Positions 29,335-54,791 of a stretch of 64,000 nt of DNA are shown piece after piece (within the stretch, counting starts at the first letter, position 1; each line of letters starts with the position of its first letter). The translations under genes and the position numbers were made by a program. The notes beneath the pieces are model-generated. The model saw nothing but the letters and a program-made list of their open reading frames with translations. It did no database searches and was not told the origin of the DNA. Origin of the DNA: Prorocentrum cordatum (taxonomy: Eukaryota); the NCBI GenBank assembly GCA_963575745.1, contig CAUYUJ010000097.1, positions 1-64,000 of the forward strand. Reading direction: 5' to 3'.

Positions 29335-29397
29335 GAGCTGCTGGGCCGCGCGGCGGAGGAGCTGCTGCGCCACTGCGGCAGCGGGCCCGTCTCCGAG
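29335..29397 (+). CDS. HPR-like protein, exon G
   Basis: GAG|GAG...TCCGAG|GA (GA donor), 63 bp. Encodes ELLGRAAEELLRHCGSGPVSE. Confidence 0.75.
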
Positions 29398-29779
29398 GAC
29401 GGGGCGCGGGACGGCCCGCCAGACGCGCGCCGCCGGGGCGGGGCCCACTTCCCAGAATTCTTCCTCCTCCTCCTGCTCCTCCTCCTCCACCTCCTCCTCC
29501 TCCTCCTCCTCGTCCTCCTCGTCCTCCTCGTTTTCCTCCGCCTCCTCCTCCTCTTCTTCCTCCTCCCCGATGCCAGACCCCTCCCTCGCGCTGTCAAAGA
29601 ATCACGACGGGAGGTGTTCCGTGGGCCCTTCCTGGGCCTCTGGACCGTCAAAAAACAGTTCGGGATGAAGGGCCGGTCCCCAGGAAGAGGTTAAAACCTC
29701 GTGGGGGTCACGTCATGAAATTACCCCGGCGACGTACCCAGCCCCTTCGCAATTCGGGGCAAGAGTAGCTTGGGAGATT

Positions 29780-31530
29780 TGACGAAATGGCGGCGACGTG
29801 AGATGGACGCATATACTTCTGCGAGCGGCATTCGGAAGGTTCGCAGGAGAGGGACTTTTCTACTTTCGTTACGGACCAGGGCATCGAGCGTTCCATCACC
29901 CTCATCTCCCCCCAGCTCATGAAACGCCACCTGAATCAGGCTGTTCTTCGGGTTCTGGAATAGGATGCTGGTAGCAAATGGGGTGTTCAGCATCGTCTGT
30001 GCTTCGAGACTATTGAGAAAGCGATTCGCAGTCGTCGCTTCTCTCGGGCCGGGCGAAAGGGGGGGATTGGGAAAGGGGGGGTTACGAAATTTGCTGCATG
30101 CAGCTGGTTTCGGCCTCACCGAGGGGCCCATTCCTCGATACATAGCCGCCTCCGGCGCCGGGAGGCGCCGGGAAAATCAGCTACGTGAGCTGATTCTCAA
30201 ACCCCCCCTTTGCTATCCCCCCCTTTCGCCCGACCCGATTCTCGGCCCTGGACCAAGGATGCATCAGAGCCCCAGCTACTAACGCTATCTGGACACGTCA
30301 TCGAGCCAAGGAAAAGGGCTACTCCCTAGATTCCGCCTGCCCTAAGTGTGGTCCTGCCCCTGACACGATCCACCATCGCCTTTGTGTTTGCCAGTGTCCC
30401 GAGGTTGCCGAGCTTCGTTTGAGTTTAACTGGTCAGGAAACTATCAATCGGGGTTTAGCCGAACCCGACCAGGTCCTTTCTCGTTTTGGAGTTTTTGCGC
30501 ACCCTGGGGACTACCCAAAGCCTGCGGCTGAGGCGACAGCCACTTGTCGGGCTCGGGGCGATCTCCCCCAGGATTTCAATCAGTTTATGTTCTGCCGTGG
30601 CATCTTCACGGATGGCAGCGCATCCACGCATGTTTTTCGTGAGTTCAGCAGAGCAGGTTGGTGTTTCACCTGTGTTGAAGGGTGAGTTTCAGGCTAATTA
30701 CAATGTGTGGCCCTGTCCCTCCGTAGTACCCTCAGACAGCTCCTGCAGGAGAGTTTGCTGCCTTCTGTCAGGCTGTTCTCTTCGCTAGCGAACCCTCGGA
30801 TGTTTACGCGGATGCCCAGCTGGTTAAGGACCATATTTCTCTTTCTAGGGTCGAGCAGCTCTCGCTCAATCGTTGCTCTTCGGGATTTGCTCTCTCGATG
30901 CTGCATGCCAAACATCAGGTCAGGCAACTGTGTAAGGTCAAAGCCCACCTTTCTTTAGACGAATGGGACGACCAGCATGATATGATGTGCCGCTTCGGAA
31001 ACCATTTTGTATATTTAAGAGCTAAGAGGGGGTCCGCTGGCGAGGGCTTCCTTGGGCACCCAACCCCCTTTCCTGAAGTATGCACGCACCTGAGTTTTGA
31101 TAACAAACTCGCATGCGCAGTCGCTCTTCTGGGAGCTAAGCTTATTCTTGTGTGGCCGTTCCCAGATTTGGAAGGAGCTGCGTTCGTGAAGCCACCTCGC
31201 GAGAGGCAGGGGAGCCGCCTTAGATGTCAGCGGCAGGCTATCCAGCTTTCCTCGCTTGGTTCGGTACCAGGTTTTTGGACGGGCTCGCAGTGTGGAAAGG
31301 TTAAACTGTTTCTCCGCGCATGACATCCCACCTGCAGCTCCTGCCTGCAGTCCGTCTGCCTCTCTTTCACGTGTCGCTTTGGCAGGAAAAGGGCACCGTT
31401 GCATCGCGTTACAGTGCTCTGACAATGCCGAGCTTGTTGTCTGCCTTGTGTGCTGTTGCCATTCCTCTCTCATGGGGCCACTCGCTACGGCAATTGGAGC
31501 CCGATCTGCAAAGGGCGCCATCCTGTCATG
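29780..31530 (+). pseudogene. Decayed non-LTR (LINE-like) retrotransposon ORF2 3' half: post-RT region, CCHC zinc knuckle, RNase H
   Basis: TFVTDQGIERSITLISPQLM; AIWTRHRAKEKGYSLDSACPKCGPAPDTIHHRLCVC (CCHC); IFTDGSAS...RAGW; KVKAH...GNHF..LRAKRG (RNase H motifs). Contains stops and frameshifts. Confidence 0.8.
30044..30238. mobile_element. MITE with 5-bp TSD inserted in the LINE remnant
   Basis: TIR TCGGGCCGGGCGAAAGGGGGG / CCCCCCTTTCGCCCGACCCGA, TSD TTCTC. Removing it restores the frame IRSRRFSALDQGCIRA. Confidence 0.9.
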
Positions 31531-32639
31531 ATGTAGAGCAAGGGCCATGGCCGGTGTTGTCTACAGCGCCAGCGCCTAGTATGGAGGTTCGGGGGCCTGA
31601 GGTCGTCGTGGAGTCTGCCGTTGGTGGTGGGACGTTTTCGATCGATTCTGGCAGTGGCGATTTTGTCTCTGAGCCTCCTGTTGCCAGCCTTCAGCCGCCC
31701 GCTGTCTCTGCTTCTCTCGACGAAGAGCTCGAGGAAGAAGAGGCAGCTGCTAATTTTTTGTTCGGCAGCCCTGTGCACCGAGGTGATGGTGGGAGGAATG
31801 TCGTCGTTGAGAAGTCTGTCGTCGGTGGGGGGAGTCTTCGAGGGCCAGTGGCAGGGGTGATTTTGCCTGTGAGTTTCCTGCCGCCAGCCTTCAGCCACCC
31901 CCTGCTGCTGCTCCGCCCGAGGGAGAGCTCGCGGGTGTAGATGCAGCGTTTATGTTTTGCTCGACGGCCCTTCCGCTCCAAGTTCAGGGTAGAGGGTCTG
32001 TCGTTGTTGAATCGGGTGTTGGGGGGTCTGGCGGTGGAGGTGGCGCTCCATCTGTTCGCGCTCCCTCTGGGAACGCACCTGGCTCACTTCCTGGTGCGCC
32101 AGTGCGCGTGGCAGCGGCCGCCTCCCCCCTCGACGTGGAGTTCGAAGGTGAGGAGGTGACCACGTTGGCCCCTGTCTCTGATGACCCTTCGGGCCACCTT
32201 TCAGGCGCATTCTGTGCGCGAGTTGGCTCGTCCTCTCGTGAGGCGGGCTTTTCTGGGGCGGCCGCCTCAGCCCCCAACGTGGCTGGTGCATCCTGTGCAC
32301 GTCAGGCCCCTGGCCCCGCTGCCCCATTGTTCCTCCTCCGCCTCTGTGAGCGCGCCTGCGATTCAGGCGTCTGGGACCGGCGGAGGCTGTTTGTTTTGCG
32401 GAGGAGGAGATCGGATCCGACGGTTTTTTTTTGTCGGGATCCGATTAAGTGGCGTCCACTATCATGTTGATGCCAAACATCGGAAGGTCCGCAGGTCCCC
32501 AATCAAGGAGAAACAAACAGAGTAATTGAGTGAACCCCTGAGTCACTAAGGAAAACGCAAGTTCCAAAAGGAAACGGTGGGCAAGGGGCTGGAAACGTCG
32601 GCGGAGCAGCAACAACATGGCATGGCCCCTAGGGGCGGC

Positions 32640-33595
32640 GAGTTCGCGTTCAGGTCTGCGCGGTGCCTCACTCCGCAGGACCCACCAGCAGCCTTCGAAA
32701 GCGGCGACAGTTTCGCAGATCGGAGCCCCCCAGGGACGGAGGTCTCGCTCAGGTCCGCGCGGTGCCTCGCTCCGCTGGACCCGCCCGCAGCCCTCGAAAG
32801 CGGCGACCGTTTTGCAGATCGCAGCCTCCCCGGGACGGGGGGGGTCTCGAAACTCGCGACAGTTTCGCAGATCGCAGCCCCTCACGGGCGGGGGGAGGTC
32901 TCGCTCAGGTCCGCGGGGTGCCTCACTCCGCTAGCCCACCAGGAGCCCTCGAAAGTGGCGACAGTCTCGCAAACCGCAGTCCCCCAGGGACGGGGAGGTC
33001 TCGCTCAGGGCCGCGCGGTGCTTCACTCCGCTGGACCCACCAGCAGCCTTCGAAGGCGGCGAAAATTTCGCAGATCGCAGCCTCCCAGGCACGGGGAGGT
33101 TTCGCTCAGGTCCGCGCGGTGCTTCACTCCGCTGGACCCACCAGCAGCCCTCGAAAGCGGTGGCAGTTTCGCAAATCGCAGCCTCCCAGGCATGGGGAGG
33201 TCTCGATCAGGTCCGCGCGGTGCCTCACCCGCTGGACCCACCGTCAGCCCTCGAAAGTGGCAGCGGCAGTCTCGCAGATCGCAGCCTCCCAGGGACGGAG
33301 AGGTCTTGCTCAGGTCCGCGCGGTGCTTCATTCCGCTGGACCCACCACCGGCCCGCGAAAATGGTGACAATTTCGCAGATCGCAGTCCCCCAGGGACGGG
33401 GAGGTCTGGCTCAGGTCTGCGCGGTGCCTCACCCCGCTGGACCCACCACCGGCCCTTAAAGTGGCGGCAGTTTCGCAGATTGCAGTCCCCCAAGGATTGG
33501 GAGGTCTCGCTCAGGTCCGCGCGGTGCCTACTCCGCTGGACCCACCAGGAGCCCTCGAAAGTGGCGACAGTCTCGCAGATCGCAGCCTCCCAGGC
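32640..33595. repeat. Minisatellite, ~100-bp unit, ~9 copies
   Basis: Unit TCGCTCAGGTCCGCGCGGTGCCTCACTCCGCTGGACCCACC...CGAAAGCGGCGACAGTTTCGCAGATCGCAGCCTCCC. Confidence 0.95.
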
Positions 33596-34119
33596 AAGGC
33601 AAGAGGAGACGAGAAGGGGGGTGCGGGAGGCGGAAGGCAGGAGGCGGGAGGCGTGAGGCGGGAGGAGGAGAAGGAAGCGACCGCAGTGCTCTATTCAAAA
33701 CGTATACCCAACCAAGGAGGGTTGGGAAAAATCATGACGTCCGGGGTCTGGGTTCCTGCCGTGGGGGAGTCGATTAGAGACGTAAGCGTGATCTCTCGCT
33801 GGAGTGACCTCTGGTGCGTGCCCACTGGGGTCCCCCGCTCGCCGAACGCGATGCGGTAGTAGCGTCTTGCGTGTGTGTTGGTCTCCCCGTGGCCCCCCCA
33901 AAGCTGCGCAACAAAGGTCACAAAAGCGAAAGAAGGACCTACACGTACATGAATCCGCGTTGGTTAGTACGCGTTGCACGAACAATCGTGTCACGCGGCT
34001 GGTCCCGCGCATTATGGGACCGTGCTCATGCACGTGGGTCCTGAGAGGTTTTGCGCCGTTGCCGGGCTCTCGGGGCCCTCCACGGGCCCCGGGAGTGTCA
34101 GACAACGGCTCGGGATGGA

Positions 34120-35185
34120 GGTCCCTTCTTGGGAGAAGGCCCCCGGGTTCCAGAACCCGCTTTCCTTTCTTTCTCGAGGCCCAGGCACAGTTTCCTCACA
34201 GCCTCGACTGCTTCAGCTAGAGCAGTCGATTCCGCCGTTCGAAGCGACCCTCAGGACCAGTTCCCGTGCGACGCGGCCCGCCCGCGCGCGCCGCCGTGGG
34301 CGGGGCCCACCTCGATCCGATCGATCCAGTTCGACGGCGACGTCGGCCGCCTCGGTTCGATGCCGATCGGTCCCTTCTTGGGAGAAGGCCCCCGGGTTCC
34401 AGAACCCGCTTCCTTTTCTTTCTCGAGGCCTGGGTCACATGTTGGACGGCCGGCCGCCTATCTCAAGCGTAAGTTTCCTCACAGCCTCGACTGCTTCATC
34501 TAGAGCAGTCGATTCCGCCGTTCGAAGCGACCCTCGAAGGATTGCAAAAAAAAGAAGGATTGCAACGAAGGATTGCAAAAAACGAAGGATTGCAAAAAAC
34601 CTTCGAAGGGTTTTTGTTTGCAATCCTTCGAAGGGTTTTTTTGCAATCCTTCGACCAGTTCCCATGCGACGCGGCCCGCCCGCGCGCGCCGACGGGGGCG
34701 GGGCCCGCTTCGATCCGATCTGATCCAGCTCGACGGCGGCGTCGGCCGCCTCGGTTCGATGCCGATCGGTCCCTTCTTGGGAGAAGGCCCCCGGGTTCCA
34801 GAACCCGCTTCCCTTTCTTTCTCGAGGCCTGGGTCACATGTTGGACGGCCGGCCGCCTATTTCAGGCGCAAGTTTCCTCACAGCCTGGACTGCTTCATTT
34901 AGAGCAGTCGATTCCGCCGTTCGAAGCGACCCTCTCTTGAACGAAGGATTGCAAAAAAAACCTGGATTGCAAAAAAACCTGGATTGCAAAAAAACCATGG
35001 GATTGCAAAAAAAACATGTTTTTTGCAATCCCTGGGTTTTTTTACAATCCAGGGTTTTTTTTGCAAGACCAGTTCCCGCGCGACGCGGCCCGCCCGCGCG
35101 CGCCGCCGTGGGCGGGGCCCGCTTCGATCCGATCTGATCCAGCTCGACGGCGACGTCGGCCGCCTCGCTTCGATGCCGATCGGTC
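34120..35185. repeat. Tandem 250-400 bp repeat, 3 copies; two carry internal inverted GGATTGCAAAAAA clusters
   Basis: GTCCCTTCTTGGGAGAAGGCCCCCGGGTTCCAGAACCCGC at 34121, 34370 and 34769. Confidence 0.85.
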
Positions 35186-37480: not shown

Positions 37481-37666
37481 AACAGTCTGTCGCCGCCCAG
37501 GGAGTGGCCTGACGGCACTCTCGCGCGCACCGAGCCCCACCCTCGATCGAGCAGCTCGAAGTGCAGAGAACGCTCGGCACGGACCGTCTCGGGGTGGGGA
37601 GGGGGAGGTACAGAGAGAGAGAGAGAGAGAGGGAGAGCGAGATAGAGAAAGAGGGGCAAGAGGGGC

Positions 37667-37698
<32 letters not shown>

Positions 37699-39940: not shown

Positions 39941-42900
39941 GCCATACTGATACTATTCATCTTCCTGCGGTAAGCCTTGCCAACGCGACGGCAGCAGCAG
40001 CAGCGCATCAGGAAGGGGCTTTCGGGGGGCCGCTGGGGCTTGCGGACCGTTAAACTGGCTTCATGAGGGCCGTCGGGGGTATCGGGGTATTCTTGGGCGC
40101 TATTGTTGTGCTGAGCTCTTCTGCAGAGGCTCGATTAACACATATTGAGGGCGAGTGGGCGGGTCTCGGTGCCGTCTTGAAATCGTGGTGCAGTGCAAGC
40201 GCGGTGACGGATTTGGGAGCCTCTTGGAGTTATCCTGCAAGTCATCTTGGGCCACGTTGGGCCAACTCGGGCGATCTTCTGTTGGAGGACTTTCGTGTCG
40301 TGGCATTTCTGGCGTGCCAGACTGATACTATTCATCTTCCTTTGGTAATCCTTGCCAACGCGACGGCAGCAGCAGCAGCGCATCAGGAAGGGGCTTTCGG
40401 GGGTCCGCTGGGGCTTGGGGACCGTTAAATTGGCTTTATGAGGGCCGTCGGGGGTATCGGGGTATTCTTGGGCGCTATTGTTGTGCTGAGCTCTTCTGCA
40501 GAGGCTCGATTAGCACATATTGAGGGCGAGTGGGCGGGTCTCGGTGCCGTCTTGAATTGCGGTGCAGTGCAAACGCGGTGACGGATTTGGGAGCCTCTTG
40601 GAGTCATCCTGCAAGTCATCTTGGGCCACGTTGGGCCAACTCGGGCGATCTTCTGTTGGAGGACTTTCGTGTCGTGGCATTTCTGGCGTGCCAGACTGAT
40701 ACTATTCATCTTCCTGCGGTAAGCCTTGCCAACGCGACGGCAGCAGCAGCAGCGCATCAGGAAGGGGCTTTCGAGGGGCCGCTGGGGCTTGGGGACCGTT
40801 AAATTGGCTTTATGAGGGCCGTCGGGGGTATCGGGGTATTCGTGGGCGCTATTGTTGTGCTGAGCTCTTCTGCAGAGGCTCGATTAACACATATTGAGGG
40901 CGAGTGGGCGGGTCTCGGTGCCGTCTTGAAATCGCGGTGCAGTGCAAGCGCGGTGACGGATTTGGGAGCCTCTTGGAGTCATCTTGCAAGTCATCTTGGG
41001 CCACGTTGGGCCAACAGGGGCGATCTTCTGTTGGAGGACTTTCGTGTCGTGGCATTTCTGGCGTGCCAGAGTGATACTATTCATCTTCCTACGGTAAGCC
41101 TTGCCAACGCGACGGCAGCAGCAGCAGCGCATCAGGAAGGGGCTTTCGGGGGGCCGCTGGGGCTTGGGGACCGTTAAATTGGCTTCATGAGGGCCGTCGG
41201 GGTATCGGGGTATTCGTGGGCGCTATTGTTGTGCTGAGCTCTTCTGCAGAGGCTCGATTAACACATATTGAGCGCGAGTGGGCGGGTCTCGTTGCCGTCT
41301 TGAAATCGCGGTGCAGTGCAAGCGCGGTGACGGATTTAGGAGCCTCTTGGAGTCATCTTGCAAGTCATCTTGGGCCACGTTGGGCCAACTCGGGCGATCT
41401 TCTTTCTGTTGGAGGACTTTCGTGTCGTGGCATTTCTGGCGTGCCAGACTGGTACTATTCATCTTCCTGCGTTACGCCTTGCCAACGCGACGGCAGCAGC
41501 AGCAGCGCATCAGGAAAGGGCTTTCGGGGGGCCGCTGGGGCTTGGGGACCGTTAAATTGGCTTCATGAGGGCCGTCGGGGGTATCGGGGTATTCGTGGGC
41601 GCTATTGTTGTGCTGAGCTCTTCTGCAGAGGCTCGATTAACACATATTGAGGGCGAGTGGGCGGGTCTCGGCGCCGTCTTGAAATCGCGGTGCAGTGCAA
41701 GCGCGGTGACGGATTTGGGAGCCTCTTGGAGTCATCTTGCAAGTCATCTTGGGCCACGTTGGGCCAACTCGGGCGATCTTCTGTTGGAGGACTTTCGTGT
41801 CGTGGCATTCCTGGCGTGCCAGACTGATACTATTCATCTTCCTGCGGTAAGCCTTGCCAACGCGACGGCAGCAGCAGCAGCGCATCAGGAAGGGGCTTTC
41901 GGGGGGCCGCTGGGGCTTGGGGACCATTACATTGGCTTCATGAGGGCCGTCGGGGGTATCGGGGTATTCTTGGGCGCTATTGTTGTGCTGAGCTCTTCTG
42001 CAGAGGCTCGATTAACACATATTGAGGGCGAGTGGGCGGGTCTCGGTGCCGTCTTGAAATCGCGGTGCAGTGCAAGCGCGGTGACGGATTTGAGAGCCTC
42101 TTGGAGTCATCCTGCAAGTCATCTTGGGCCACGTTGGGCCAATTCGGGCGATCTTCTGTTGGAGGAGTTTCGTGTCGTGGCATTTCTGGCGTGCCAGACT
42201 GATACTATTCATCTTCCTGCGGTAAGCTTTGCCAACGCGACGGCAGGAGCAGCAGCGCATCAGGAAGGGGCTTTCGGGGGGCCGCTGGGGCTTGGGGACC
42301 GTTAAATTGGCTTCATGAGGGCCGTCGGGGGTATCGGGGTATTCGTGGGCGCTATTGTTGTGCTGAGCTCTTCTGCAGAGGCTCGATTAACACATATTGA
42401 GGGCGAGTGGGCGGGTCTCGGTGCCGTCTTGAAATCGCGGTGCAGTGCAAGCGCGGTGACGGATTTGGGAGCCTCTTGGAGTCATCCTGCAAGTCATCTT
42501 GGGCCACATTGGGCCAACTCGGGCGATCTTCTGTTGGAGGACTGTCGTGTCGTGGCATTTCTGGCGTGCCAGACTGATACTATTCATCTTCCTGCGGTAA
42601 GCCTTGCCAACGCGACGGCAGCAGCAGCAGCAGCGCATCAGGAAGGGGCTTTCGGGGGGCCGCTGGGGCTTGCGGACCGTTAAACTGGCTTCATGAGGGC
42701 CGTCGGGGGTATCGGGGTATTCTTGGGCGCTATTGTTGTGCTGAGCTCTTCTGCAGAGGCTCGACTAACACATATTGAGGGCGAGTGGGCGGGTCTCGGT
42801 GCCGTCTTGAAACCGCGGTGCAGTGCAAGCGCGGTGACGGATTTGAGAGCCTCTTGGAGTCATCCTGCAAGTCATCTTGGGCCACGTTGGGCCAACTCGG

Positions 42901-43597
42901 GCGATCTTCTGTTGGAGGACTTTCGTGTCGTGGCATTTCTGGCGTGCCAGACTGATACTATTCATCTTCCTGCGGTAAGCCTTGCCAACGCGACGGCAGC
43001 AGCAGCAGCGCATCAGGAAGGGGCTTTCGGGGGGCCGCTGGGGCTTGGGGACCGTTAAATTGGCTTCATGAGGGCCGTCGGGGGTATCGGGGTATTCGTG
43101 GGCGCTATTGTTGTGCTGAGCTCTTCTGCAGAGGCTCGATTAACACATATTGAGGGCGAGTGGGCGGGTCTCGGTGCCGTCTTGAAATCGCGGTGCAGTG
43201 CAAGCGCGGTGACGGATTTGAGAGCCTCTTGGAGTCATCTTGCAAGTCATCTTGGGCCACGTTGGGCCAACTCGGGCGATCTTCTGTTGGAGGACTTTCG
43301 TGTCGTGGCATTTTTGGCGTGCCAGACTGATACTATTCATCTTCCTGCGGTAAGCTTGCCAACGCGACGGCAGCAGCAGCAGCGCATCAGGAAGGGGCTT
43401 TCGGGGGGCCGCTGGGGCTTGGGGACCGTTAAATTGGCTTCATGAGGGCCGTCGGGGGTATCGGGGAATTCTTGGGCGCTATTGTTGTGCTGAGCTCTTC
43501 TGCAGAGGCTCGACTAACACATATTGAGGGCGAGTGGGCGGGTCTCGGTGCCGTCTTGAAACCGCGGTGCAGTGCAAGCGCGGTGACGGATTTGGGG
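39941..43597. repeat. Highly homogeneous tandem array, ~375-bp unit, ~10 copies
   Basis: The TTAAAYTGGCT junction (TTACATTGGCT in one copy) recurs at ~40050, 40425, 40800, 41174, 41552, 41927, 42302, 42680, 43055 and 43429. Confidence 0.97.
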
Positions 43598-43905
43598 GAG
43601 TTGATGACCAGGCACTTGCCCATTGCGCCAAGCTTGTGGACAAAGTTCTCTTAAAGCTTCCTGCGTGCATCTTGGGGCCTCTGGGGGGCGTCCTGGAGCC
43701 TCGTGGGAGCATCTCGTGGCCATTCTGGGGCCTCGTTGGGCCATCTTCGGAAGCCGTGTTGGTGGTATCTTGGGAGCATCCGGGATCCGCATAAGGGACG
43801 GGGACGTTGGGGCATTTGGGAGTCGTCTTGAACCTACCTTGCCTCCCTCCCTCCCTTCGCTCCCGCTTTACCCACCCCCTCGTAGCACAATCCAGGCGCT
43901 TCGAG

Positions 43906-43927
43906 AACGCAGGCTTTTTGGCACAAA
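43906..43927 (+). other. Possible degenerate spliced-leader relic upstream of the SPFH gene
   Basis: AACGCAGGCTTTTTGGCACAAA matches DCCGTAGCCATTTTGGCTCAAG at 16/22 positions, ~90 bp before the ATG. Confidence 0.4.
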
Positions 43928-44018
43928 CCGAGCAGCCAGGCCCGCCCGGCACGCTTTTATTTTTTGAGGGGGGGGTCTCAGATTTCTTCGCCCAGCCCGA
44001 GCGTCGAAGGTCGCGTTG

Positions 44019-47003
44019 ATGGCGGGACAGCAGAGGCAGGAGTTTGGGTGCATCCCCTGCTGCAACTGCTGCGTGACCGTGCCGCAGGACAAGATCTACG
44101 CCGTGGAGCTCTTCGGAAGCTTCACCAAGGCGATCTCGAAGACGAAGGGGCAGCATAAACACAAACTGTCGGCGCTCCGCGCGGATTGGCTCGGCGCCAA
44201 ACCCACCACCCTGGCGGCGTGGAGCGGAGCTCTGAAAGATTATGTTTATGTCGGTTCTCTTCCTCTGACCAAGGTAATCTTAAGTCGGGCCCGTCCCTCT
44301 ACAGGAGGAATATTCAAAAATAGTCAAAGAAATAGTATGGGGACTATTTTTTGACGCTCAATCCGCCGGCCCGCATTGTGCCCTCGCTGGCGTTTGGGCT
44401 TTTGGGGGCCTTTTGGGGTCCTCATTGGAATTGGGGGTTTCTTGGGGGGCCCTTGGGTTTCTGTTGGAGCCTCTTTGGGGTTTCTTGGAGCTCCTTTGGG
44501 AGCATTTGGGAGCATCTTGGGGCTTCTGGGAGCCGCTTGCGAGCCGCTTGGGAGCTTCTTGGGGGCCTCGTGAGGGCCTTGTGGAGGCCTCCTGGGGCTT
44601 GAAAGGGGCCCTCTTGGCGCCTCCTGGGGGCTTCTTAGGGCCGAGGGCTCGAAATGTTGTTTCGTGCTCCCCCTCTGGGGCTTCTCTTAGAGCGTTCTGA
44701 GGGCCCTCTTGGGCCGTCTTTGAGGCCTCTTAGGCCGTCTTGGAACCCCCTTGGGCCGTCTCGGGGCCCTGTCGGAGGCCTCTCGGGCTTCTTAGGGCGA
44801 TCTTGGGGGCCTCTTGGGCCGTCTTGGGGCGTCGCGATGCCGAAAAGGTGGAGACGCCAACATCTCCCCCAAACCTTCGGAAAAGCAATGAATTTTGCCT
44901 CTTGGGGCCCTCTTGGGAGTGCTCTTGAAAGCCTCGTGGGGCGTCTGGGGGCTATCTCGAGGGCCTTTTGAGGGCCGCCTGGGGCTTGAAAGGGGCCTCT
45001 TGGCGCCTCCTGGGGGCTTCTTAGGGCAGAGGGCTCGAAATGTTGTTTCGTGTTCCCCCTCTGGGGTCCCAGAGCGTTCTTGGGGTCCTCTTGGGCCGTC
45101 TTGGAAGCCTCTTGGGCCGTCTTGGAACCCTCTTGGGCCGTTTTGGGGCTTGAAAGGGGCCTCTTGGCGCCTCCTGGGGGCTTCTTAGGGCCGAGGGCTC
45201 GAAATGTTGTTTCGTGCTCCCCCTCTGGGGCTTCTCTTAGAGCGTTCTTGGGGCCGTCTTGGAACCCTCTTGGGCCGTCTTGGGGCCCTGTCGGAGGCCT
45301 CTTGGGCCTCTTAGGGCGATCTTGGGGGCCTCTTGGGCCGTCTTGGGGCGTCGCGATGCCGAAAAGGTGGAGACGCCAAAATCTCCCCCAAACCTTTAGA
45401 AAAGCAATGCATTTTGCCTCTTGGGGCCCTCTTGGGAGTGCTCTTGAAAGCCTCGTGGGGCGTCTGGGGGCTATCTCGAGGGCCTTTTGAGGGCCGCCTG
45501 GGGCTTGAAAGGGGCCTCTTGGCGCCTCCTGGGGGCTTCTTAGGGCAGAGGGCTCGAAATGTTGTTTCGTGTTCCCCCTCTGGGGTCCCAGAGCGTTCTT
45601 GGGGTCCTCTTGGGCCGTCTTGGAAGCCTCTTGGGCCGTCTTGGAACCCTCTTGGGCCGTCTTGGGGCCCTGTCGGAGGCCTCTCGGGCCTCTTAGGACG
45701 ATTTTGGAGGCCTCTTGAGCCGTCTTGGAGCGTCGCGATGCCGAAAAGGTGGAGACGCCAAGATCTCCCCCAAACCTCAGGAAAAGCAATGAATTTTGCT
45801 TCTTGGGGCCCTCTTGGGAGTCTCTTGGGGCTCCTTGGCGGCGTCTTGGGGCCGCAGGGCCTCTTGGGGGGCTCTTGGAGGCCTCTTAGGGCGGGAGGGG
45901 GGGTAGTCGATTGCGGCTCCTCCTCCCTCGGCGGCCACGATCCTCGTGAGGGGTGTCGAAAAATGACCCTCCCCTGGAGTGCTTTGGTGGCTCCTCCCGG
46001 GACCTTGCCAGGGTACTTTTTCGTCTGGGGACAACCAGGGGCCGCCCCGCGCACGCGAACTAGAAATACTGTGAACCAGTTACCGGAGATCTTCGCACGC
46101 CTCTGGCCCGTTGGGCTGGCGATTTTTTTGACCATTTTGGAGTATGTTTTGAGTATTGTTTATTTTTCGTCGAAAATCCCCCTGTAGGGGGGCACGCCCG
46201 ATTTAAAGGTAATCGGTTCTGGCCTCAACGTCGTCGGGTGTGACGTGGGGGGGTGCTGCATCAGCTTCCGGTCCATCACCAAGCGCGTCGAGCAGAACGA
46301 CGTCATCGTGGAGACCAAGACCAAGGATAACGTATTCGTGTTGGTGAAGGTTTCTGTTCAGCAGCAGGTCATCCCGGATCAAGCGGAGTCCGCCATCTAC
46401 AGACTCGCGAATGTCGGTGCGCAGATCGATTCATATGTCTCGGACGTGGTGCGCTCATGCGTACCGAAGATGACATTGGACGAAGCATTCGAGGAGAAGG
46501 ACAACATTTCCTCTGCCGTCAACGATGCCCTCACCAAGAGCATGCACGAGTATGGGTTCCAGATCATTAAGGCACTCGTGACTGAGCTGAAGCCCAGCCA
46601 GGACGTGATGAATTCCATGAACGAGATCAACAAGCAGAAGCGTCTCCGCGATGCAGCAATGATGGCTGCTGAGGCTGATAAGATCCGGGTGGTTAAGAAA
46701 GCAGAGGCGGATTCCGAATCAGCTCGTCTGCAGGGCGAGGGCATCGCGAAACAGCGCGAGGCCATCGTGGACGGCCTGAAGAGGTCCGTCACCTCTGGGA
46801 CCGATGAGCAGCTCTCCTCCGACAAGGTCTCCGAGCTGTTGCTCATCACGCAGTATTTCGAGACGCTGAAGGAAATCGGAGCGAGGTCGGGGTCCAACGC
46901 TGTCTTTATCCCGCACAGCCCCGCTGATGGCGTCCGGGATATTTCTGCTCAGATCCGCAACGGCATCATGCAGGGCGGCGCTCCTGGGCAGATGCGCATG
47001 TGA
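44019..47003 (+). CDS. HIR: SPFH/band-7 domain protein, hypersensitive-induced-reaction (HIR)-like; join(44019..44129,46209..47003), 301 aa
   Basis: Exon 1 is MAGQQRQEFGCIPCCNCCVTVPQDKIYAVELFGSFTK. Exon 2 has VIGSGLN...VETKTKDNVFV, MNEIN, AEA...GEGIAKQREAIVDGL, LLITQYFETLKEIG, AVFIPHSP...QIRNGIMQG, all hallmark HIR motifs. Phase-0 GC-AG join. Confidence 0.93.
44130..44273 (+). mobile_element. MITE-derived 144-bp GC-AG intron (Introner-like)
   Basis: Internal inverted repeat CATAAACACAAACTGTCGGCGCTCCGC / GCGGAGCTCTGAAAGATTATGTTTATG. Flanking duplication ACCAAGGcgATC / ACCAAGGtaATC. Confidence 0.75.
44280..46206. mobile_element. TTAAGTCGGGC-family MITE inserted at the SPFH splice acceptor, carrying a nested ~1.77-kb satellite-filled element (44356-46123)
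   Basis: TIR TTAAGTCGGGCCCGTCCCTCTACAGG / CCTGTAGGGGGGCACGCCCGATTTAA. TSD AGGTAATC at 44272-44279 and 46207-46214. The nested insert is flanked by TTTTTTGAC (44347-44355, 46124-46132). Confidence 0.9.
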
Positions 47004-49281
47004 GCGACGGCAGGCGGTGCAACACGCAGCAGCATCAGGATGGGATACGATGCGGCGGCGCGCCGAGGATGCAGCAAGAGGGGGCAGGCCTCCTCCGGAG
47101 GCGGCGGGGCTTCCCAGAAGCCCTCAGAAGCCCGCCGCGGCTTCGGAGAAGGCTTAGAAAGCTTCCCTGGATGCCAGAGGCCTTCTGAGCATTTGAGAAG
47201 GCCCGCACTTAGGTCTTTAGCATACGCGCGAAACCTGAAGCAGCGGAGTCAAACCCAAGTTTCGTCATAAGCGCCCGGGGAGAGCAGCCTCCCGCGAAAC
47301 TCGACCCCCACCGCGGACAGCCGCCGCGCGCCGAAGCCGCCCGAAGCCCCAGGCCCCCCAGGCGCGGTGCGCAGGCGTGGCGAGGTCGACCCGCGTCGGT
47401 CGGGGGGGCCCACCCGCGCGCTGATGAAGGAACGCACAATAAATACAAGTCAAGCGAGCATGCCCACGCATCTCGTGTGGAGCCGAAGCGTTCCCACTCG
47501 GGTTCCTGGAGCCACTGCGAGCCTGTCAGCCGTTCAGGCTGCAAACATGGCTGGAGTTTGGCAGCCTGTCTAATACGCGAGGGGAGTGAATACAGAGTTT
47601 TTGCCTTGCTCCCCGTTGAATGCAGACGTCTTCAACTCCTTCGATCATTTGGCGCGCAGGGCTAAGTCCCTCGCGCTCTCACCTCTCATCCAGCGACCGC
47701 GCTCGTGCCAAAACTTCGCCTATTGTGCCACTTTTCCTCCCCACGGCTCTCCGAGACTTCACACCGGCTCCGAAATTGTGCCAAAAAGCCCCAAGAACAC
47801 TCCGAAGATGCCCCACAGACGCTTCCAAGAGACCCAAAGAGGCACCATGGTGCCTCTGAGGAACCCCCAAGGCCCCGCGAAGCCCCTAAGAGGCTTCCCA
47901 GGGGCCACCACACGTCCCCAACACGACACTGCCAGGTCGGACAAGTCCACAAGCCGAAAAGGCCCCAAGATGCCCCCAAGAGATTCCCCGAATAAGCTTC
48001 CAAACGCAAAGAGCTGCTTGTCAGACCTAAAGACAGTTAGCTGTTTTAGCCCACGAGCAACGTTCCCTCCCCATAGCTCTCCGAGTCATCATTGCGGTTA
48101 CGCAATGGCTCCCGAGACGCCTTCAAGAGGCCAAAGCGGCTTCCAAGAGACTCGTTGGGAGGCCAAACGCATTGAATAACAATCGGGAAGCCTTAGCTTA
48201 GTGTTTTGAAGTTCTATAATTTGTTCGCTTCTGATTGGCCTCTCAGGCCTCTAAGGCGCCCAAACGGCCCCAGAGAGCCCGAAGCCCCAGAGAGCTTCAA
48301 GACGGCCCCAACATCGCCCGAGAGCCTCTCAAGAGCGCACTAAGAGGGCCCCAGGACGGCCCAGAAAGTCCCCCAAGATGGCCGCCCAGGGCGTCGGACG
48401 GACCCCGAGCGCCCCAGGAGAGCCCAAGAGGCCCCTGAGGCTCCAGAAAGCTCCCGGGATGCCCCCAAAGACGGCCCCACGAGGCCCCCATAGGGCCCCC
48501 TCCGGGGAGGCCCCGGGCGCGGCAGCTGATGGCACCCAGCGTGCTCTGGAAGCTGCCCGCAGGAGCACGCTGGAGCCCGACGTCAGCCCCGGGCCTCCCG
48601 GAGGCCACCGCGGGCCGCCCCATATGCCCGCCGTCGGGGGCCCGGCGCGGCTGCTCGAGGGCATTCCTCGGAGGGGCCAGCCGACCCAATCCGATCCGCT
48701 TCGCCGCGAAGCCTCACGTTGCACAGCAGGGGTGGGACCCAAACGGTGTTTTGGCGATTTCGTGGGCCGCTTTCGTTTCGATGTCGTCTTGCGTGAAGGG
48801 CGGATTGAAGACAGAACGAGGGAAAACGAACACACAACGAAACGAAAAACACCGTTTAGGTTCAGCCCTGTTTCACAGCACGTTCTGGAACACGCTTGCC
48901 GCAGCACGCTGCAGCTCAGAAGGGGAGCCGCAGGGACGAGGAGAACGGTCAGGAGGACCCCTTCGCCAGTATGGACTAGCGGACCTGGGCTCGCATCCCT
49001 CCCCCCCGCAGCCTTTCGACCCGCGCATCAGACCCTCTAGCCGATGCTGCCCCAGCCCCAGGCGAGGGTGGCCTCCACTCGTGCCGAGGCCTTCGTTCTC
49101 GCCAGGTTCCGGACGCGCTCCGCCGCCTCGCCCCGCCCGCCCGGCCCACGCGCTGCGCTTCTCGCTCGGGCATGGCGCAACGGGTGGGGCGAGAGGGGCC
49201 CTGAAAGGGCCCCCCCTGGGGCCCAACATGTGCACGAAAGATGCACTTTTCCGCCCCCCATTCATCGAACCTCCCAGCTGG

Positions 49282-49444
49282 GGTCCGAGCAGATGGGGTC
49301 GAGGGATCGCGCCGCATCGCCGATGCATCGGCGATGGGGCTCCATGTGGAGCCCGACTTTCTCCACCTGCGTCGCCGATGCAGCGCTGGCGTCGCCGATG
49401 CATCGGCGATGCGGCGCGATCCCTCGACCCCATCTGCTCCGACC
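49282..49444. mobile_element. Palindromic MITE-like hairpin
   Basis: ~50-bp near-perfect inverted arms GAGCAGATGGGGTCGAGGGATCGCGCCGCATCGCCGATGCATCGGCGA. No TSD seen. Confidence 0.65.
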
Positions 49445-50429
49445 GCGTTTAGGAGGCGCCTCGGTGAACGAACGCCCGGCCTGGTCCGCCCGCTGCGCTT
49501 CTCGTGCCGCCCCCGGGGCGAGCCGAGCCGAGCGGGCGCTCCCGTGCACGGAGCGGCCCTGGAGGGGTGCCGGTCCCTCCGGGGGGGGAGCCGAGCGCCT
49601 TCAGGACTCGCAGAGTGCCTGCTCGCAGATGCCAGAGGAACACATGTCTGCATCGATGCAGCGTGTGGTGAATCCCCCGTGGCGGAAGCCCTTCGCGAGC
49701 AGTGGAACGTGCTCGCCTATTCCCATCGCGCTGATTTTCGCTATCCACCAATAGGTGTCACTGCGGAGGTGGAGGGGGGGGGAGGAGGAGGGGGCGGGAG
49801 GCCATCTAGGGTTCTTGTAGCCGTAGGGGGAGTCTCTTCCGCATGGGTCCCCCCAGAGGCCGTATTGGGCCAGCCCAATGACCTCCAGGGGGGCGTCCGT
49901 GCTTGTACAGTCGGCCCTTTTGGGTCATCTTGGGGCCGCCTTGGGCCCTCTCTTGGGTCGTTCTGAGGCCATCCTGGAGGCCAATTTCGCGGTCTTGGTG
50001 GCCTACCTGGCAAGTTTTGGAAGCAATGTTGAGCATCCTTGACGCCTTGCGAGGCGCCAGGTGGGCATCTGGCAGCCCAGGGAGCCTCGGGAGAGGGGAC
50101 GGTGCATGCAGATATCTGCGTGCGTCCAGGGGGCGGGGGTCCTTCATCAGAAGGCACAAACCCTGCCAGATAGCACTTTGCATTCTACCACGCCTCAATG
50201 CACCATGAGGCAGAATGGAGGATGCACACTTATCTAAGATTGAAGACGCCTGCGGCGAATCACCGCCGCCGCCTGCCTTTTGGAATCGCCCATGTGGCCG
50301 ATCGTTGCCAAGCTATTGGGCCATGTGTTCCCCCAGCCGTTGTAGAAATCCTTCCGGGAACACCTGCGGGAGGATGGCGGGGAAGATCAGGAGGAGGAGG
50401 AGGAGGAGGAGAAGGAGGAGGAGGAGGGG

Positions 50430-52780
50430 GCATATTGGGAGCCTCTAGGGGCACTCTTGGGGCCTCCTTAGAGCTTCCTAGGAGCCTTTTGGAAGCATCT
50501 TGGGGCCTCCTCGGGCCTCTTGGGGGCCTTTGGGGGCGTCTCGGGGGCTCTATTGGCCGTCTTTGGGCATTCCTGGCCCGCCTGACGCCGTCGGAAGCCG
50601 TCTTGGGGGCCTCTCTGGGCCGATTTCGGGCCCTCTTGGGGTGCTCCAGGGCCGTCCTGGAGACCATCTTGTCATTTTCGATGCCTCTTGGGTCGTCTTG
50701 GGGACCTCTTGGGGCAGTCTGCGGGGCCTCTTGGGCCGTTCTGGGCCTTCTTGGAAGGCCTCGTGGGCGATCTTGGGGCGACCTTTGGGGCTCTTGGGCC
50801 GTCTCGGGCCGTCGGAAGATCGAAAAGAAGTAAAAGCCAAACTCCTTCAAACACCTACCGAAACTCTGTGATTTGGGTTTCTTCGGGGCCTTCCTGGAGG
50901 CCCTCTTGGGGGTCTCTGGGGCTGTTTTGGGGGCCTCTTGGGGGCCTCTTGGGCCTCCTTGGGCCATCCTCGGGCCATCTTGGGCCGTCTTGATGGTCTT
51001 CTGGCCAGTCTGGCGCCGTCGGAAGCCGTCTTGAGGGCCTCTCTGGGCCGACTTGGGGCCCTCTTGGGGTGCTCCAGGGCCGTCTTGGAGGCCACCTTGG
51101 GCGTCTTGGTGGCCTCGTGGGCCGTCTTGGGGCCCTCTTTGAACCGTCTGAACAGAGGCAAATGCTTAACTCCTTCAAAAACCGACGGAAAGTCTATGAT
51201 TTTGGTAGCCTCTTTGAGCCTTCCTGGACGACCTCTTGGAGGCTTCTTGGGCCGACCAGGAGATTTCTTGCGGGCCTCTTCTCTTGGACCATCTTGAACT
51301 ATTTTGGGCCGTCTTGGTAGCTTCCTGGCCCGTCTGACACCCTGGGAAGCCGTCTTGAGGGCCTCTCTGGGCCGACTTGGGGCCCTCTTGGGGTCCATCT
51401 TTGGCGTTTTGGGGGCCTCGTGGGCCGTCGTGAGATCCTCTTGGGGCAGTCTTGGGGCCCATTGGAACAGTCTTGAGGCGAACTTTGGGGGCTCTTGGGC
51501 CGTTTCGGGCCGTCGGAGGACCGAAGAGAAGCAAACGCAAAGAGTCTTCCTGGAGGACCTCTTGGAGGCCTCTTGGGCCGTCTTGGAGGCTATCTGGGGT
51601 CCTCTAGGGCCGTCTTGGCCCACTTTGCTGCTATCTTAGGCCGTCTTGGAGGCATCTTGGGCCGTCTTGGAGGCATCTTGAAGCCATCTTAGCCGTCTTG
51701 GAGGCCATCTTGGAGGCCATCTTGGGCCATCTTGGCGGTCTTGAAAGCCATCTTGAGCCGCCTTGGGAACTTTTTGAGAATTGCGAGCCTCTCCGGTGAC
51801 CGGCGGGACGAACCGAAGCCCCAGGGAGAGTTCCTTGGGAAATAGAGCCAAAACCAAGAGCGATAGGATTTAGCACGCGGGGTACTCCTGTGGTAAGCCA
51901 TCAGGGGCCGGCGGATCGAAGACGCCTACGGCGAACCACCGCCGCCCCCTGCCTTTTTGGAAGCGCCTATGTGGCCGAACGTCGAGGCCAGACCTGCCAA
52001 GCCATCGGACCATGTGTTCCCCGAATCGGTTTGGAAAGCCTTCGGGGAACACGTGGGCATCTTGAAGGTCATCTTGGCCGTCTTGGAGGCCTCTTGGGCG
52101 ATCTTTCGGCGATCTTTGGGGGCTCTTGGGCCGTCTCGGGCCGTCGGAAGGCCGAAAAGAAGGAAATGTCACAATCCGTCAAAAATCTTTGGAAAATCAA
52201 TGTTTTTGGCATTTTCTGGCCCTCCTGGAGGCCCTCTTGGGGGCCTCTTGGGCCGTCTTGGGCCAGCTTCGAGCCAACTTCGGCCATCTTGGTGGGTTCC
52301 TGGCACGTCTGACGCCGTCGGGAGCCGTCTTGGGGGCCTTTCTGGGCCAACGGGGGACCCTCTTGGGGCGCTTCGGGGCCGTCTTGGAGGCCATCTTGGG
52401 CGTCTTGGAGGCCATCTTGGGCGTGTTGGAGGCCTCTTGGGCCGTCTTGGGGCCCTCTTGGGGCCATCTTGGAGGCAACTTGGGCCGTCATGGGGCCCTC
52501 TTGGGGGCCTCTTGGGCGATCTTGGGGTGGGGGCCCCTTGGGCCGTTTTGAGCCGTCGGAATGCCGAGAAGAAGCAAATTCCAAAATCCTTCAAACACCC
52601 ATGGGAAAATCTATGATTTTGGCCTCTTCGGGCCCTCCTGGAGGACCTCTTGGAGGCCTCTTGGGCCGTCTGGGAGGCCTCTGGGGGGCCTCTTGGGCCG
52701 TCTTGGGCCGTCTTGGACTTTCTTGGGCCGTCTTGGAGGCCGTCTTGGACCGACTTGGAGGCCATCTTGGGCCATCTTTG
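50430..52780. repeat. Degenerate GGGCCGTCTTG satellite-filled repeats (at least two adjacent elements)
   Basis: Dense GGCCGTCTTGG/GGCCTCTTGG motifs. Source of the PGGPLG/KTAQE pseudo-ORFs. Confidence 0.85.
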
Positions 52781-53124
52781 CGATTTGTTGAGGATGTCCC
52801 GAGCGAAACGGCCGTTTCAGGGAGGATTGTTTCCGGAGTTTGTGCACGTGGAACGGCCTCCCGGGGCTCGGCTGGACGGGCCGAAACCCGTTGGGAGAGT
52901 TCTTGTGGAAAAAGAACAAAACCAAAACCGAGACGCGCGAACACGAAACCGAAACCGATTTCCCGGTAGCGGGGCTCTCCGTTCCACTTCGATCTCACCC
53001 CTTCACCTCCGACACACACACATATATATATATATATACATACATACATACATATTATGTATGTGTATCTATACGACCACCATTCGGGTGATAAGGAGGT
53101 TCGAGAGGGGGGAAGAACCAACGT

Positions 53125-54175
53125 CTCACTCGATCGGTCTCACTATCGATCTCACTATCGATCTCACTATCGGTTTCGCTCGATCGATCTCACCCGATCG
53201 ATCTCACAATCGGTCTCACTCGATCTATTTCATTCGATCGATCTCACAATCGATCTGACTGTCGATCTCACAATCGATCTCACTATCGATCTCACGATCG
53301 ATCTCACAATCGATCTCACATTTGGTCTAACAATCGATCTGAGTATCGATATCACAACCGATCTCACAATCAACGCCATCATCATCTTCAACACCATCGT
53401 CACCAACGCCATTTACATCATCATCATCATCATCATCATCATGAGGTCATCATCATCATCAACATCGTCAACATCATGATCAAAATCAGCATCACCATCA
53501 TCATCGGGACACCATCATCGTAACTATCATCATCATCAACATCATAATCATCGGGACACCATCATCACCACCACCTCATCATCATCCTCATCATCACCAT
53601 CATATCAGCATCATCATGAACAACATCATCAACATCATCATCACCATCGGGACACCATCATCAGCAACATCAGCATCATCATCAACATCATCATCGTCGG
53701 GACACCATCATCATCGTCACTATCATCATCACCACCATCATCATCGGGACACCATCATCATCCACATCAGAAGCATCAGCATCACCATCATCGGGCCACC
53801 ATCATCATCACATCATCATCATCATCCTCGGTTTCAACATCATCATCGTCATCTGGATACCATCATCGTCATCACCATCATCAACATCATCATCATCATC
53901 GGAACACCATCATCATCACCACCATCATCATCAATTGCATCATCATCATCAACCTCATCATCATCATCGGGACACCATCATCATCATCATTATCATTATC
54001 ATCCCATCATCAACAACATCATCATCATCACCATCATCGGGACACCATCATCATCATCAGCAACATAATCATTATCAACATCACTATCACCACCATCATC
54101 ATCATCATCAACATCGTCAACATCATCATCATCATCGGGGCACCATCACATCATCATCACCATCATCATCATCAA

Positions 54176-54218
<43 letters not shown>

Positions 54219-54300
54219 GGGGCGCCATCATCATCACCACCATCATCATCATCATCAACATCATCATCCTCCTCCTCCTCCTCATCATCATCATCGGGAC
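53125..54300. repeat. (ATCGATCTCACW)n 12-mer satellite followed by degenerate (CAT)n with interspersed CGGGACACC
   Basis: Direct reading. Confidence 0.92.
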
Positions 54301-54791
54301 ACCGACGGGACACTGGCGGGACACCGGCGGGACACCGCGCGGCAACGGACGCCGGAAGGGAGTCATTTGGTCTGGACGCGCCTCAGCCTGAGGCGGGACA
54401 CCGGCGGGACACCGCGCGGCAACGGTTGCCGGAAGGGAGTAATTTGGTCCGGCCGCGCCTCAGCCGGAGGAGACTTTCTTCTCGCCCGCCCACGCAGCTT
54501 CGCCTCGCCCGCACGCGCGGCACGCACGAACGCGACACTGAAACCGATTTCCCGGTAGGGGGGCTCTCCGTTCCACTTCGATCTCACCCCCTCACCTCCG
54601 ATACATACCTGTTTGCCCACCTGCCGATTTACCTACATACATACATATATGAATGCATACATACACACATTATATCTAGACATGTGTATATATGTAGAGA
54701 GCGAGAGAGAGAGAGAGGGAGAGAAAGAGAGAGAGAGAGAAGAGCGTTTGGAGTGGTGGCGGGTGAGAGGGGCATCCATGCCGCCCGAGAG

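Follow-up and report, generated by a model that had tools for sequence, protein, structure and literature searches.

A same-strand SPFH/Band 7 gene within a 25.4-kb GA-AG intron of a RESC6/FASTK-like gene in Prorocentrum cordatum

The host gene and its 25.4-kb intron

The DNA analysed here (the window) is a stretch of 64,000 nucleotides from a contig of the dinoflagellate Prorocentrum cordatum, and its + strand carries nine short exons of a host gene with a complete guest gene inside one of the introns. The host is represented by a public NCBI model (P0005, "unnamed protein product, partial [Prorocentrum cordatum]", 372 aa, contig listed at 118,313 bp). Residues 1-234 of this protein are encoded at 100% by the nine exons, and residues 235-372 have no coding sequence in the window, the C-terminal exons lying beyond its end. 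The public models of both host and guest are pipeline predictions obtained with EvidenceModeler and PASA (PMC10666404), and P0005 is partial in that its N-terminus is missing. When the host junctions were tested one by one for splits that reproduce the P0005 protein, every junction had exactly one solution with a G[T/C/A]..AG intron followed by G.

The host exons lie at 5489..5589 (A), 7197..7298 (B), 17911..17989 (C), 22425..22487 (D), 23265..23347 (E), 25589..25652 (F), 29335..29397 (G), 54792..54895 (H) and 55037..~55078 (I, with its end inferred from a GT|GC donor). At 42-104 bp they agree with the original prediction that no host exon exceeds about 115 bp. The introns from A-B to H-I measure 1607, 10612, 4435, 777, 2241, 3682, 25394 and 141 nt. 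The annotated start in exon A is internal, with the frame open from 5483, and the orthologues reach further N-terminally than this start; a tblastn search of the window with the orthologues found no N-terminal exons upstream of 5489. The last intron in the series, H-I (54896..55036), is a GC-AG intron of 141 nt that is filled nearly completely by two nested inverted repeats, giving an introner-like hairpin.

A profile built from 13 sequences of the host family matches trypanosome RESC6 (8fn4 chain 6; E 6e-25); mL115 and mitoribosomal repeat proteins are further matches, as are RAP-domain proteins. The host protein had no Pfam family in the search made here, and it takes its name from source names and from similarity to solved structures. 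By similarity over the repeat region, the host is a RESC6/FASTK-like helical-repeat protein, with a probable role in organellar RNA binding. The host exons carry roughly one repeat each and are separated by long repeat-filled introns.

The G-H intron (29398..54791, +) is 25,394 nt long, has a GA donor and an AG|G acceptor, and contains the guest along with much repeated DNA. These are exactly the borders that had been predicted, and they were reproduced by the junction test. They read GAG|GACGGG ... CCCGAGAG|GAC and fall in phase 0 between E185, the last residue of exon G, and D186, the first of exon H. The intron thus has the form of the dinoflagellate non-canonical type, which begins with G[T/C/A], ends in AG and is followed by an exon whose first base is G. 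Among P. cordatum introns, 23.8% have GA donors and 79.7% AGG acceptors, and the mean lengths are 4,709 bp for introns and 240 bp for exons (PMC10666404). The repeat search found two tandem arrays inside the G-H intron, one with units of about 101 bp (32650..33594) and one with 375-bp units (39941..43596; 9.7 copies, 96% matches) that ends about 420 bp before the ATG of the guest. Leader-like words occur in each 375-bp unit; they were considered as SL RNA genes and rejected, being without donor context and scoring only 18.

The nested SPFH gene and a second gene in the next intron

It had been predicted that an intact gene lies on the same strand wholly within the long GA-AG intron, and this is indeed the arrangement found, with the guest at 44019-47003 (+) between exons G and H (+). 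The guest protein of 301 aa is encoded in two exons, 44019..44129 (37 codons, phase 0) and 46209..47003; the latter contains the Band_7 domain and, at 795 bp including the stop, is the long exon noted earlier. Between them lies an intron of 2,079 nt (44130..46208, GC..AG|G), which is made up of internal repeats (a duplication of about 519 bp and 11-bp units of the TCTTGGGGCCC type) with high copy numbers in the DNA runs. All 11 full-length cDNA-like contigs of relatives (L001-L011) align as two blocks, with 44130-46208 skipped. The spliced protein of a JGI contig (P0281) differs from the guest at 5 of 301 residues. In addition, the P. cordatum paralogue P0100 has, relative to P0033, an insertion of 40 aa exactly at the junction of guest exons 1 and 2, and the intron position is thus apparently common to a paralogue.

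The guest scores 75.2 bits against Pfam Band_7 (PF01145; cut-off 23.6, E 8.9e-21) and matches chains of QmcA, stomatin and prohibitin, which places it, by similarity, in a multi-copy SPFH/Band 7 (HIR/stomatin-like) family. With dN/dS values of 0.07-0.15 against eight relatives, it is, by this measure of its coding sequence, intact and under purifying selection. The idea that the gene is unannotated was rejected, because a public P. cordatum model (CAK0788619.1) has exactly the protein sequence of the guest; its contig, like that of the host model, is listed at 118,313 bp.

Band_7 was the sole Pfam family above its curated cut-off in the ORFs searched, which were 244 on the + strand (at least 60 aa, kept from 326 by a composition filter) and 150 on the - strand (out of 165 kept from 267 of at least 75 aa). 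A zf-RVT match at 30194-30682 was below threshold (E 0.0021, 19.1 bits versus a cut-off of 27.5), and Rfam gave no matches at the gathering score over the whole window.

The next host intron, I-J, holds a second same-strand gene at 57174..61965 (+). It is a predicted model, based on long open frames at 57162-57644, 58299-~58716 and 58925-61965 that are joined by likely introns, for example GT..AG|G at 58717-58924. No Pfam family matches this gene, and the best ESM Atlas score (0.89, to an unnamed cluster) is uninformative. Upstream of it lies a clear relic of the dinoflagellate spliced leader (DinoSL) at 57097..57117 (+), with CCGTAGCCATTTTGGC intact; none of 100 shuffles gave a match, and in the separate alignment scoring the relic reaches 34.

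Integrity and origin of the nesting

Exons G and H belong to one mRNA, judging indirectly from the public model, which joins both, and from the continuity of the orthologues. Twelve of the 150 listed orthologues were aligned, namely the nine best full-length matches and three short matches spanning the junction, and all 12 run across E185|D186 with length differences of at most 2 residues. They include a Polykrikos kofoidii Trinity transcript, two "merc" assemblies and a JGI sequence; four Logan contigs of 1.3-1.8 kb that are filled almost wholly by an ORF, and one of 1.2 kb with a 115-aa fragment; and NCBI models from Effrenium and Durusdinium. This bears directly on the possibility that two neighbouring helical-repeat genes, one comprising A-G and the other H onward, were wrongly fused into the host model, which would leave the guest intergenic. 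The repeats are mutually similar, dinoflagellate paralogues are often in tandem and P0005 is a prediction marked partial, all of which could favour such an error. Nonetheless, a false fusion is highly improbable: the repeat register is kept in all 12 collinear orthologues, including transcript-derived sequences from other genera, and no ortholog residues are unaccounted for between G and H.

An equally slim chance is given to an assembly artefact, in which the unique 5-kb segment with the guest was misplaced, with the 375-bp array to its left and, to its right, the high-copy repeats of 48.9-53.6 kb. The assembly is a short-read/PacBio hybrid, and repeats do flank the guest on both sides: the summed depth of contigs from four DNA runs over 43600-63599 is in the thousands at 44.3-46.3 and 48.9-53.6 kb, versus about 4 in unique parts. 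The contig joints from these runs fall in repeats, and no contig was useful for bridging. Against this, the window contains no N characters, so the G-H interval is not a scaffolding gap, and a misplaced segment would require two independent wrong joins, exons G and H being correctly ordered and oriented. Moreover, the next intron also holds a same-strand gene, and nesting is reported as common in other dinoflagellate assemblies, including one made from nanopore reads only. The number of units in the 375-bp array could be wrong, which would alter the length of the intron and not the nesting.

The history of the guest can be approached through the spliced leader traces of its family. Eight of the 11 full-length cDNA-like contigs of relatives open with the 3'-terminal part of the dinoflagellate spliced leader, so mRNAs of the SPFH family are trans-spliced. 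In six of these eight the leader is directly followed by a relic leader, and the relatives show one or two relics. Such relics in the 5' UTRs of relatives would be expected if ancestors of the family, and with them those of the guest, passed through mRNA-mediated retroposition. Dinoflagellate retrogenes with DNA-encoded relics of DinoSL have been described (PMC12014239, PMC5585692, PMC6050394), and one of these reports expressly accepts that a retrogene may contain introns (PMC12014239).

As to the possible leader relic that had been noted at the guest itself, its upstream region has only a decayed leader-like element (43913..43932, +). It is preceded immediately by an AG at 43911-43912 and, further upstream, by TCGTAG at 43880-43885; no spliced-leader match with three or fewer mismatches was found near the guest. 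A gapped local alignment gives a score of 22 at 43913-43926, versus 34 for the clear relic at 57097. This is the second best score on the + strand and one of three hits of at least 22 over both strands of the 64 kb; a rough post hoc estimate puts the chance of such a hit at about 0.002 for any given 150-nt interval. The sequence around the element can be aligned to the 5' UTRs of L001 and L004. Given this homology to the UTRs of relatives, the element should be older than the divergence from genes whose coding DNA is only 85-86% identical.

The suggestion that the guest is a retroposed mRNA therefore fares better for the gene family, with its leaders and relic leaders, than for the guest itself, which keeps its 2,079-nt intron and is without a poly(A) trace. 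One might suppose that a spliced, leader-bearing SPFH mRNA was recently reverse-transcribed and inserted straight into the existing host intron. The repeated retroposition of the family, the relic leaders in six of eight leader-bearing contigs, the score-22 element with its alignment to relatives' UTRs and the unmistakable relic at the gene in the next host intron are all consistent with this, as is an exon of 795 bp, long for a genome with a mean exon of 240 bp (PMC10666404). A recent retrocopy is still unlikely. The intron loss typical of a retrogene is not seen in the guest, whose GC-AG intron occupies a position seemingly common to a paralogue (P0100 versus P0033). The region behind the guest stop (47004-50000, 3 kb) has no run of at least 6 A and no 15-nt window with at least 11 A; the leader-like element is decayed and older than the split from the 85-86% identical genes; and no target-site duplication came to notice. 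Because of the intron, its apparently paralogue-shared position and the lack of an A-rich tract, the retroposition looks old, and it need not be the event that placed the guest in the host intron.

Expression of the nested genes and comparison with other systems

The reading favoured here, with a probability of roughly 0.75, is that of a real same-strand nested pair, ordinary for dinoflagellates, with a RESC6/FASTK-like host, a guest from a retroposed family and, most likely, a route of transcript processing as follows. RNA polymerase would read through the entire unidirectional region. The 5' end of the guest mRNA would arise by trans-splicing of the 22-nt leader to a putative acceptor AG about 100-135 nt before the ATG (43884-43912), and its 3' end by cleavage and polyadenylation behind 47003. 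Host mRNA would form only where splicing joins the GA donor at 29398 to the AG at 54791 and bypasses the sites of the guest, so that host and guest outcomes would compete on any one pre-mRNA. Release of the guest from the host pre-mRNA by SL trans-splicing, as originally suggested, is plausible.

The guest might instead have its own transcription start within the host intron and owe nothing to transcription of the host, with the nesting being purely positional. Nested genes of Amphidinium carterae are expressed at 0.07 to 14 times the level of their hosts, which its authors relate to differential transcription of adjacent regions (PMC12584245); the average is 2.07 times host expression, and a mean with so wide a spread is no indication that guest and host transcription are tightly coupled. 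In P. cordatum, however, no promoter was recognisable with the tools at hand, and dinoflagellate genes in unidirectional runs are thought to be co-transcribed and resolved by trans-splicing, a view that is itself unproven (PMC10666404). Independent transcription is thus a serious alternative, if one that we would not bet on. A broader version of the processing route, that one host primary transcript yields up to three mRNAs, is more tentative. Cis-splicing over distances of 25 kb and of more than 9 kb would give the host mRNA, while the mRNAs of the SPFH gene and of the second nested gene would be derived from the same pre-mRNA or its excised introns by SL trans-splicing and polyadenylation. 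If this were true, the output of host and guests would depend on how cis- and trans-splicing compete. In-frame host-guest chimeras would be possible as well, since the end of host exon G, the start of H, the end of guest exon 1 and the start of guest exon 2 are all in phase 0.

The nested SPFH gene is real but ordinary, since the arrangement is common in dinoflagellates and both models are already public. This case adds little to the genome-wide documentation of nested genes in long dinoflagellate introns. The locus could, however, serve as a compact test system, in which two neighbouring introns of one host each hold a same-strand guest; the first guest comes from a family with visibly trans-spliced mRNAs, and the second has a clear genomic leader relic. 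The general question it would address is whether dinoflagellate intronic genes are matured from the host transcript by trans-splicing or have their own transcription.

The closest parallels are the nested genes of other dinoflagellates. They make up 8.4% and 6.5% of the genes in two isolates of Polarella glacialis, where they were checked with full-length transcripts (PMC7245778), and 25.2% of the genes in A. carterae (PMC12584245). There, too, a complete gene lies in a long intron of a multi-exon host with short exons, and some hosts have guests in several introns. Those cases differ in being from other species than P. cordatum, and the accessible text of the reports leaves the strand of the guests unstated. 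The accessible dinoflagellate nested-gene literature held no description of this particular pair, though both models are publicly annotated. The relic-DinoSL retrogenes, of which Slamovits and Keeling reportedly gave the original description, are resembled by the relatives' mRNAs, with a leader and one or two relics, and by the second nested gene, whose genomic relic has the full 5' part. The guest differs in that its own relic is decayed and statistically modest, its intron is present and a poly(A) remnant was not found.

Trans-splicing of a leader also resolves the polycistronic transcripts of trypanosomatids and of nematode operons, and the same has been proposed for dinoflagellates (PMC10666404). 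Introner elements offer a parallel for the 141-nt host intron H-I, nearly all of which is two nested inverted repeats by its ends, as in IE+ introns (PMC10666404); the 25.4-kb G-H intron and the guest intron differ in being without such terminal inverted repeats, and no inverted pairs of at least 30 nt were found in 43600-47100. With SL-resolved polycistrons, the nested guest would share a downstream coding unit that can be matured from a longer precursor through a leader at an AG and polyadenylation at the 3' end. The P. cordatum guest, likened to them from its sequence, differs in sitting within a cis-spliced intron, and trans-splicing would therefore compete with the removal of that intron.

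The host gene and its 25-kb intron

The public protein model of the host gene (P0005, 372 amino acids, entered at NCBI as 'unnamed protein product, partial [Prorocentrum cordatum]' and located on a 118,313-bp contig) is the sole match to the translated surroundings of exon H in a collection of 5.8 billion proteins. Its residues 1-234 are coded exactly and collinearly on the + strand of the window, which has a G+C content of 61% and an N count of 0. This exact match makes the window P. cordatum DNA, or DNA that cannot be told apart from it, and the dinoflagellate spliced-leader relic at 57097-57117 agrees with such an origin. Every split point that reproduces the protein was sought at the eight host junctions, one junction at a time, and exactly one split per junction combines an intron start of GT, GC or GA with an AG end and a following G (8/8). 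These solutions place exons A to I, all on the + strand, at 5489-5589, 7197-7298, 17911-17989, 22425-22487, 23265-23347, 25589-25652, 29335-29397, 54792-54895 and 55037 to about 55078, separated by introns of 1607, 10612, 4435, 777, 2241, 3682, 25394 and 141 nt. Intron G-H (29398-54791, +; 25,394 nt, GA..AG|G) falls exactly where the original prediction had placed a GA-AG intron. According to the available portions of the P. cordatum genome paper (PMC10666404), introns of this species have GA donors in 23.8% of cases, AGG acceptors in 79.7% and a mean length of 4,709 bp, so that the splice type of intron G-H is ordinary and its length about five times the mean.

Because the public model is only a prediction, support for the joining of exons G and H was sought among orthologues. 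A search of 1.84 billion representatives yielded 268 relatives at E <=0.001 and 12 at E <=1e-30. Twelve of the 150 listed relatives were aligned, namely the nine best full-length sequences together with three short sequences spanning the G-H junction; P0135, a relative that only just extends to the junction, and multi-stretch repeat paralogues lower in the list were excluded. All 12 orthologues are continuous across the junction (E185|D186), with length differences of at most 2 residues and the repeat register kept, and the Durusdinium protein is also continuous there in a pairwise alignment with the host. The sources include a Trinity transcript from Polykrikos kofoidii, five Logan contigs (four measuring 1.3-1.8 kb and each nearly filled by the ORF, and one of 1.2 kb with a 115-aa fragment), two 'merc' assemblies, one JGI contig, and NCBI models from Effrenium voratum and Durusdinium trenchii. 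When seven orthologues were placed on the window by tblastn, they recovered the same host exons in the same order, with 0 residues unplaced between G and H. The alignment and the tblastn placement together make it unlikely that the model falsely fuses two genes, or that an exon within the 25-kb intron has been missed.

Residues 235-372 of P0005 have no coding in the window, and the next host exon therefore lies beyond 64000; intron I-J thus extends on the + strand from about 55079 to beyond the window. At the other end, the orthologues have 47-116 extra N-terminal residues relative to P0005, and the annotated start Met is therefore internal. The open frame continues ahead of 5489 (window 5483-5489); no N-terminal exon ahead of exon A was found in 1-5488. 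The host family profile matches trypanosome RESC6 (E 6e-25) as well as RAP-domain and mitoribosomal repeat proteins; the Pfam run used here matched no family to the host. We call the host a RESC6/FASTK-like helical-repeat protein. A 9-nt exact piece of the spliced leader (CCGTAGCCA) was also seen at 24222-24290 (+), about 40 nt ahead of a frame reading HALPELCA, which resembles host residues 235-241 (HLPELCA), otherwise coded outside the window. This frame may be a chance occurrence or a decayed pseudo-exon.

The SPFH guest gene and its history

The exon maps of host and guest bear out the original prediction that an SPFH gene is nested on the same strand within intron G-H. The guest has two coding exons, 44019-44129 (+, 111 bp) and 46209-47003 (+, 795 bp), which together encode a 301-aa protein; the 795-bp open frame contains a Band_7 domain (E 8.9e-21). 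Full-length cDNA-like JGI contigs from relatives of the guest (L001-L011), each with the full coding sequence, all align to the window in two blocks that skip 44130-46208 (11/11), confirming a guest intron of 2,079 nt with GC-AG|G boundaries. Pairwise dN/dS between the guest and eight of these relatives is 0.07-0.15. The possibility that the guest is an unannotated gene is ruled out by NCBI CAK0788619.1 (P. cordatum, 301 aa, 118,313-bp contig), a member of the best-matching cluster that is identical to the two-exon model; with this entry and P0005, host and guest are both already publicly annotated. The JGI contig protein P0281 differs from the guest at 5/301 residues. Another, P0278, equals the guest over residues 1-187 and then carries the C-terminus of another paralogue (25 differences); it looks like a chimeric assembly of paralogous transcripts, and argues for caution when paralogues are counted from JGI contigs.

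The guest had also been read as a retroposed mRNA that landed in the intron; for its gene family, retroposition is supported. Eight of the 11 full-length contigs start with 6-16 nt of the 3' end of the dinoflagellate spliced leader (DinoSL), and six of these carry, in the 15 nt that follow, a relic, or DNA-encoded copy, of the leader (at most 2 mismatches in five, 5 in L005, where a second relic follows the first). The guest family has thus clearly gone through mRNA intermediates. The picture is less clear for the window copy itself: no leader match with <=3 mismatches was found near the guest. A gapped scan of both strands of the window gave three matches scoring >=22, including one of score 22 at 43913-43926, which ranks second on the + strand after a relic at 57097 (score 34). 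By a rough, post hoc estimate, a score-22 match has a chance of about 0.002 of falling within any given 150-nt interval. The stretch around the 43913-43926 element can be aligned to the 5' UTR of L001 and to that of L004, so this leader-like element upstream of the guest is old.

That the window copy is a recent retrocopy is made unlikely by three observations. The guest has an intron, and the P. cordatum paralogue P0100, compared with paralogue P0033 (both on a 256,942-bp contig), carries 40 additional residues precisely at the position of the guest's exon 1/exon 2 junction. The insertion looks like a short intron retained in the paralogue's model, suggesting that the two genes share an intron position. 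In addition, no A-rich remnant was found within 3 kb of the guest stop. We conclude that retroposition occurred in the past of the guest family, an event that need not have brought the window copy into the host intron.

Other contents of the host introns

The host intron after exon I appears to hold a second nested gene. The DinoSL relic at 57097-57117 (+; CCGTAGCCATTTTGGC) has 16 consecutive matching bases, and 0/100 shuffles matched. Behind it, on the same strand, are long open frames at 57162-57644, 58299 to about 58716, and 58925-61965, which could plausibly be joined through introns such as GT..AG|G 58717-58924. The segment 57097-61965 (+) thus looks like a same-strand gene with a leader relic and introns; neither Pfam nor Atlas named a family for 57162-61965.

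Intron G-H is rich in repeats. It contains a tandem array of ~101-bp units (32650-33594), a 375-bp tandem array (39941-43596) and many 11-bp-unit repeats. Summed contig depth reaches thousands at 44267-46267 and 48936-53604, versus about 4 in unique parts (four DNA-type runs), and the repeats in these two segments are built on 11-bp TCTTGGGGCCC-type units. The four runs with such repeats are mutually unrelated, and two are labelled metagenomes. Repeats of this family are very abundant, and widespread among the sampled runs. A weak, sub-threshold zf-RVT match at 30194-30682 (+; E 0.0021; 19.1 bits, where the cut-off is 27.5) in the same intron may be what is left of a retroelement. Intron H-I (54896-55036, 141 nt) is nearly all hairpin, with two nested inverted repeats, one of 22 nt (82%) adjoining both ends and one of 36 nt (81%) inside. 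It resembles the introner elements described in the available portions of the P. cordatum genome paper (PMC10666404).

Proposed maturation and known nested genes

The guest mRNA is predicted to mature by trans-splicing of the leader at an AG some 100-135 nt ahead of the ATG, between 43884 and 43912, together with polyadenylation. Trans-splicing is proposed because the relatives' mRNAs carry the leader and because it agrees with how dinoflagellate genes are currently held to be expressed (PMC10666404). The precursor could be either the host transcript or a separate transcript; if it also contained host exons, trans-splicing of the guest would compete with removal of the 25-kb intron. The end of host exon G (29397), the start of exon H (54792), the end of guest exon 1 (44129) and the start of guest exon 2 (46209) are all in phase 0, so that putative splicing between host and guest would keep the frame.

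Nested genes are well documented in other dinoflagellates. The available portions of the Polarella genome paper (PMC7245778) report that 8.4% and 6.5% of the genes are nested in two isolates, with confirmation by full-length transcripts and up to 24 guests per host; those of the Amphidinium carterae paper (PMC12584245) give 25.2%. In Amphidinium, nested genes have on average twice the expression of their hosts, with a wide spread, a pattern that gives no sign of tight coupling to the host. The present locus is not treated in these portions of either paper. Nesting is thus a known kind of arrangement, and the present instance is correct but ordinary.
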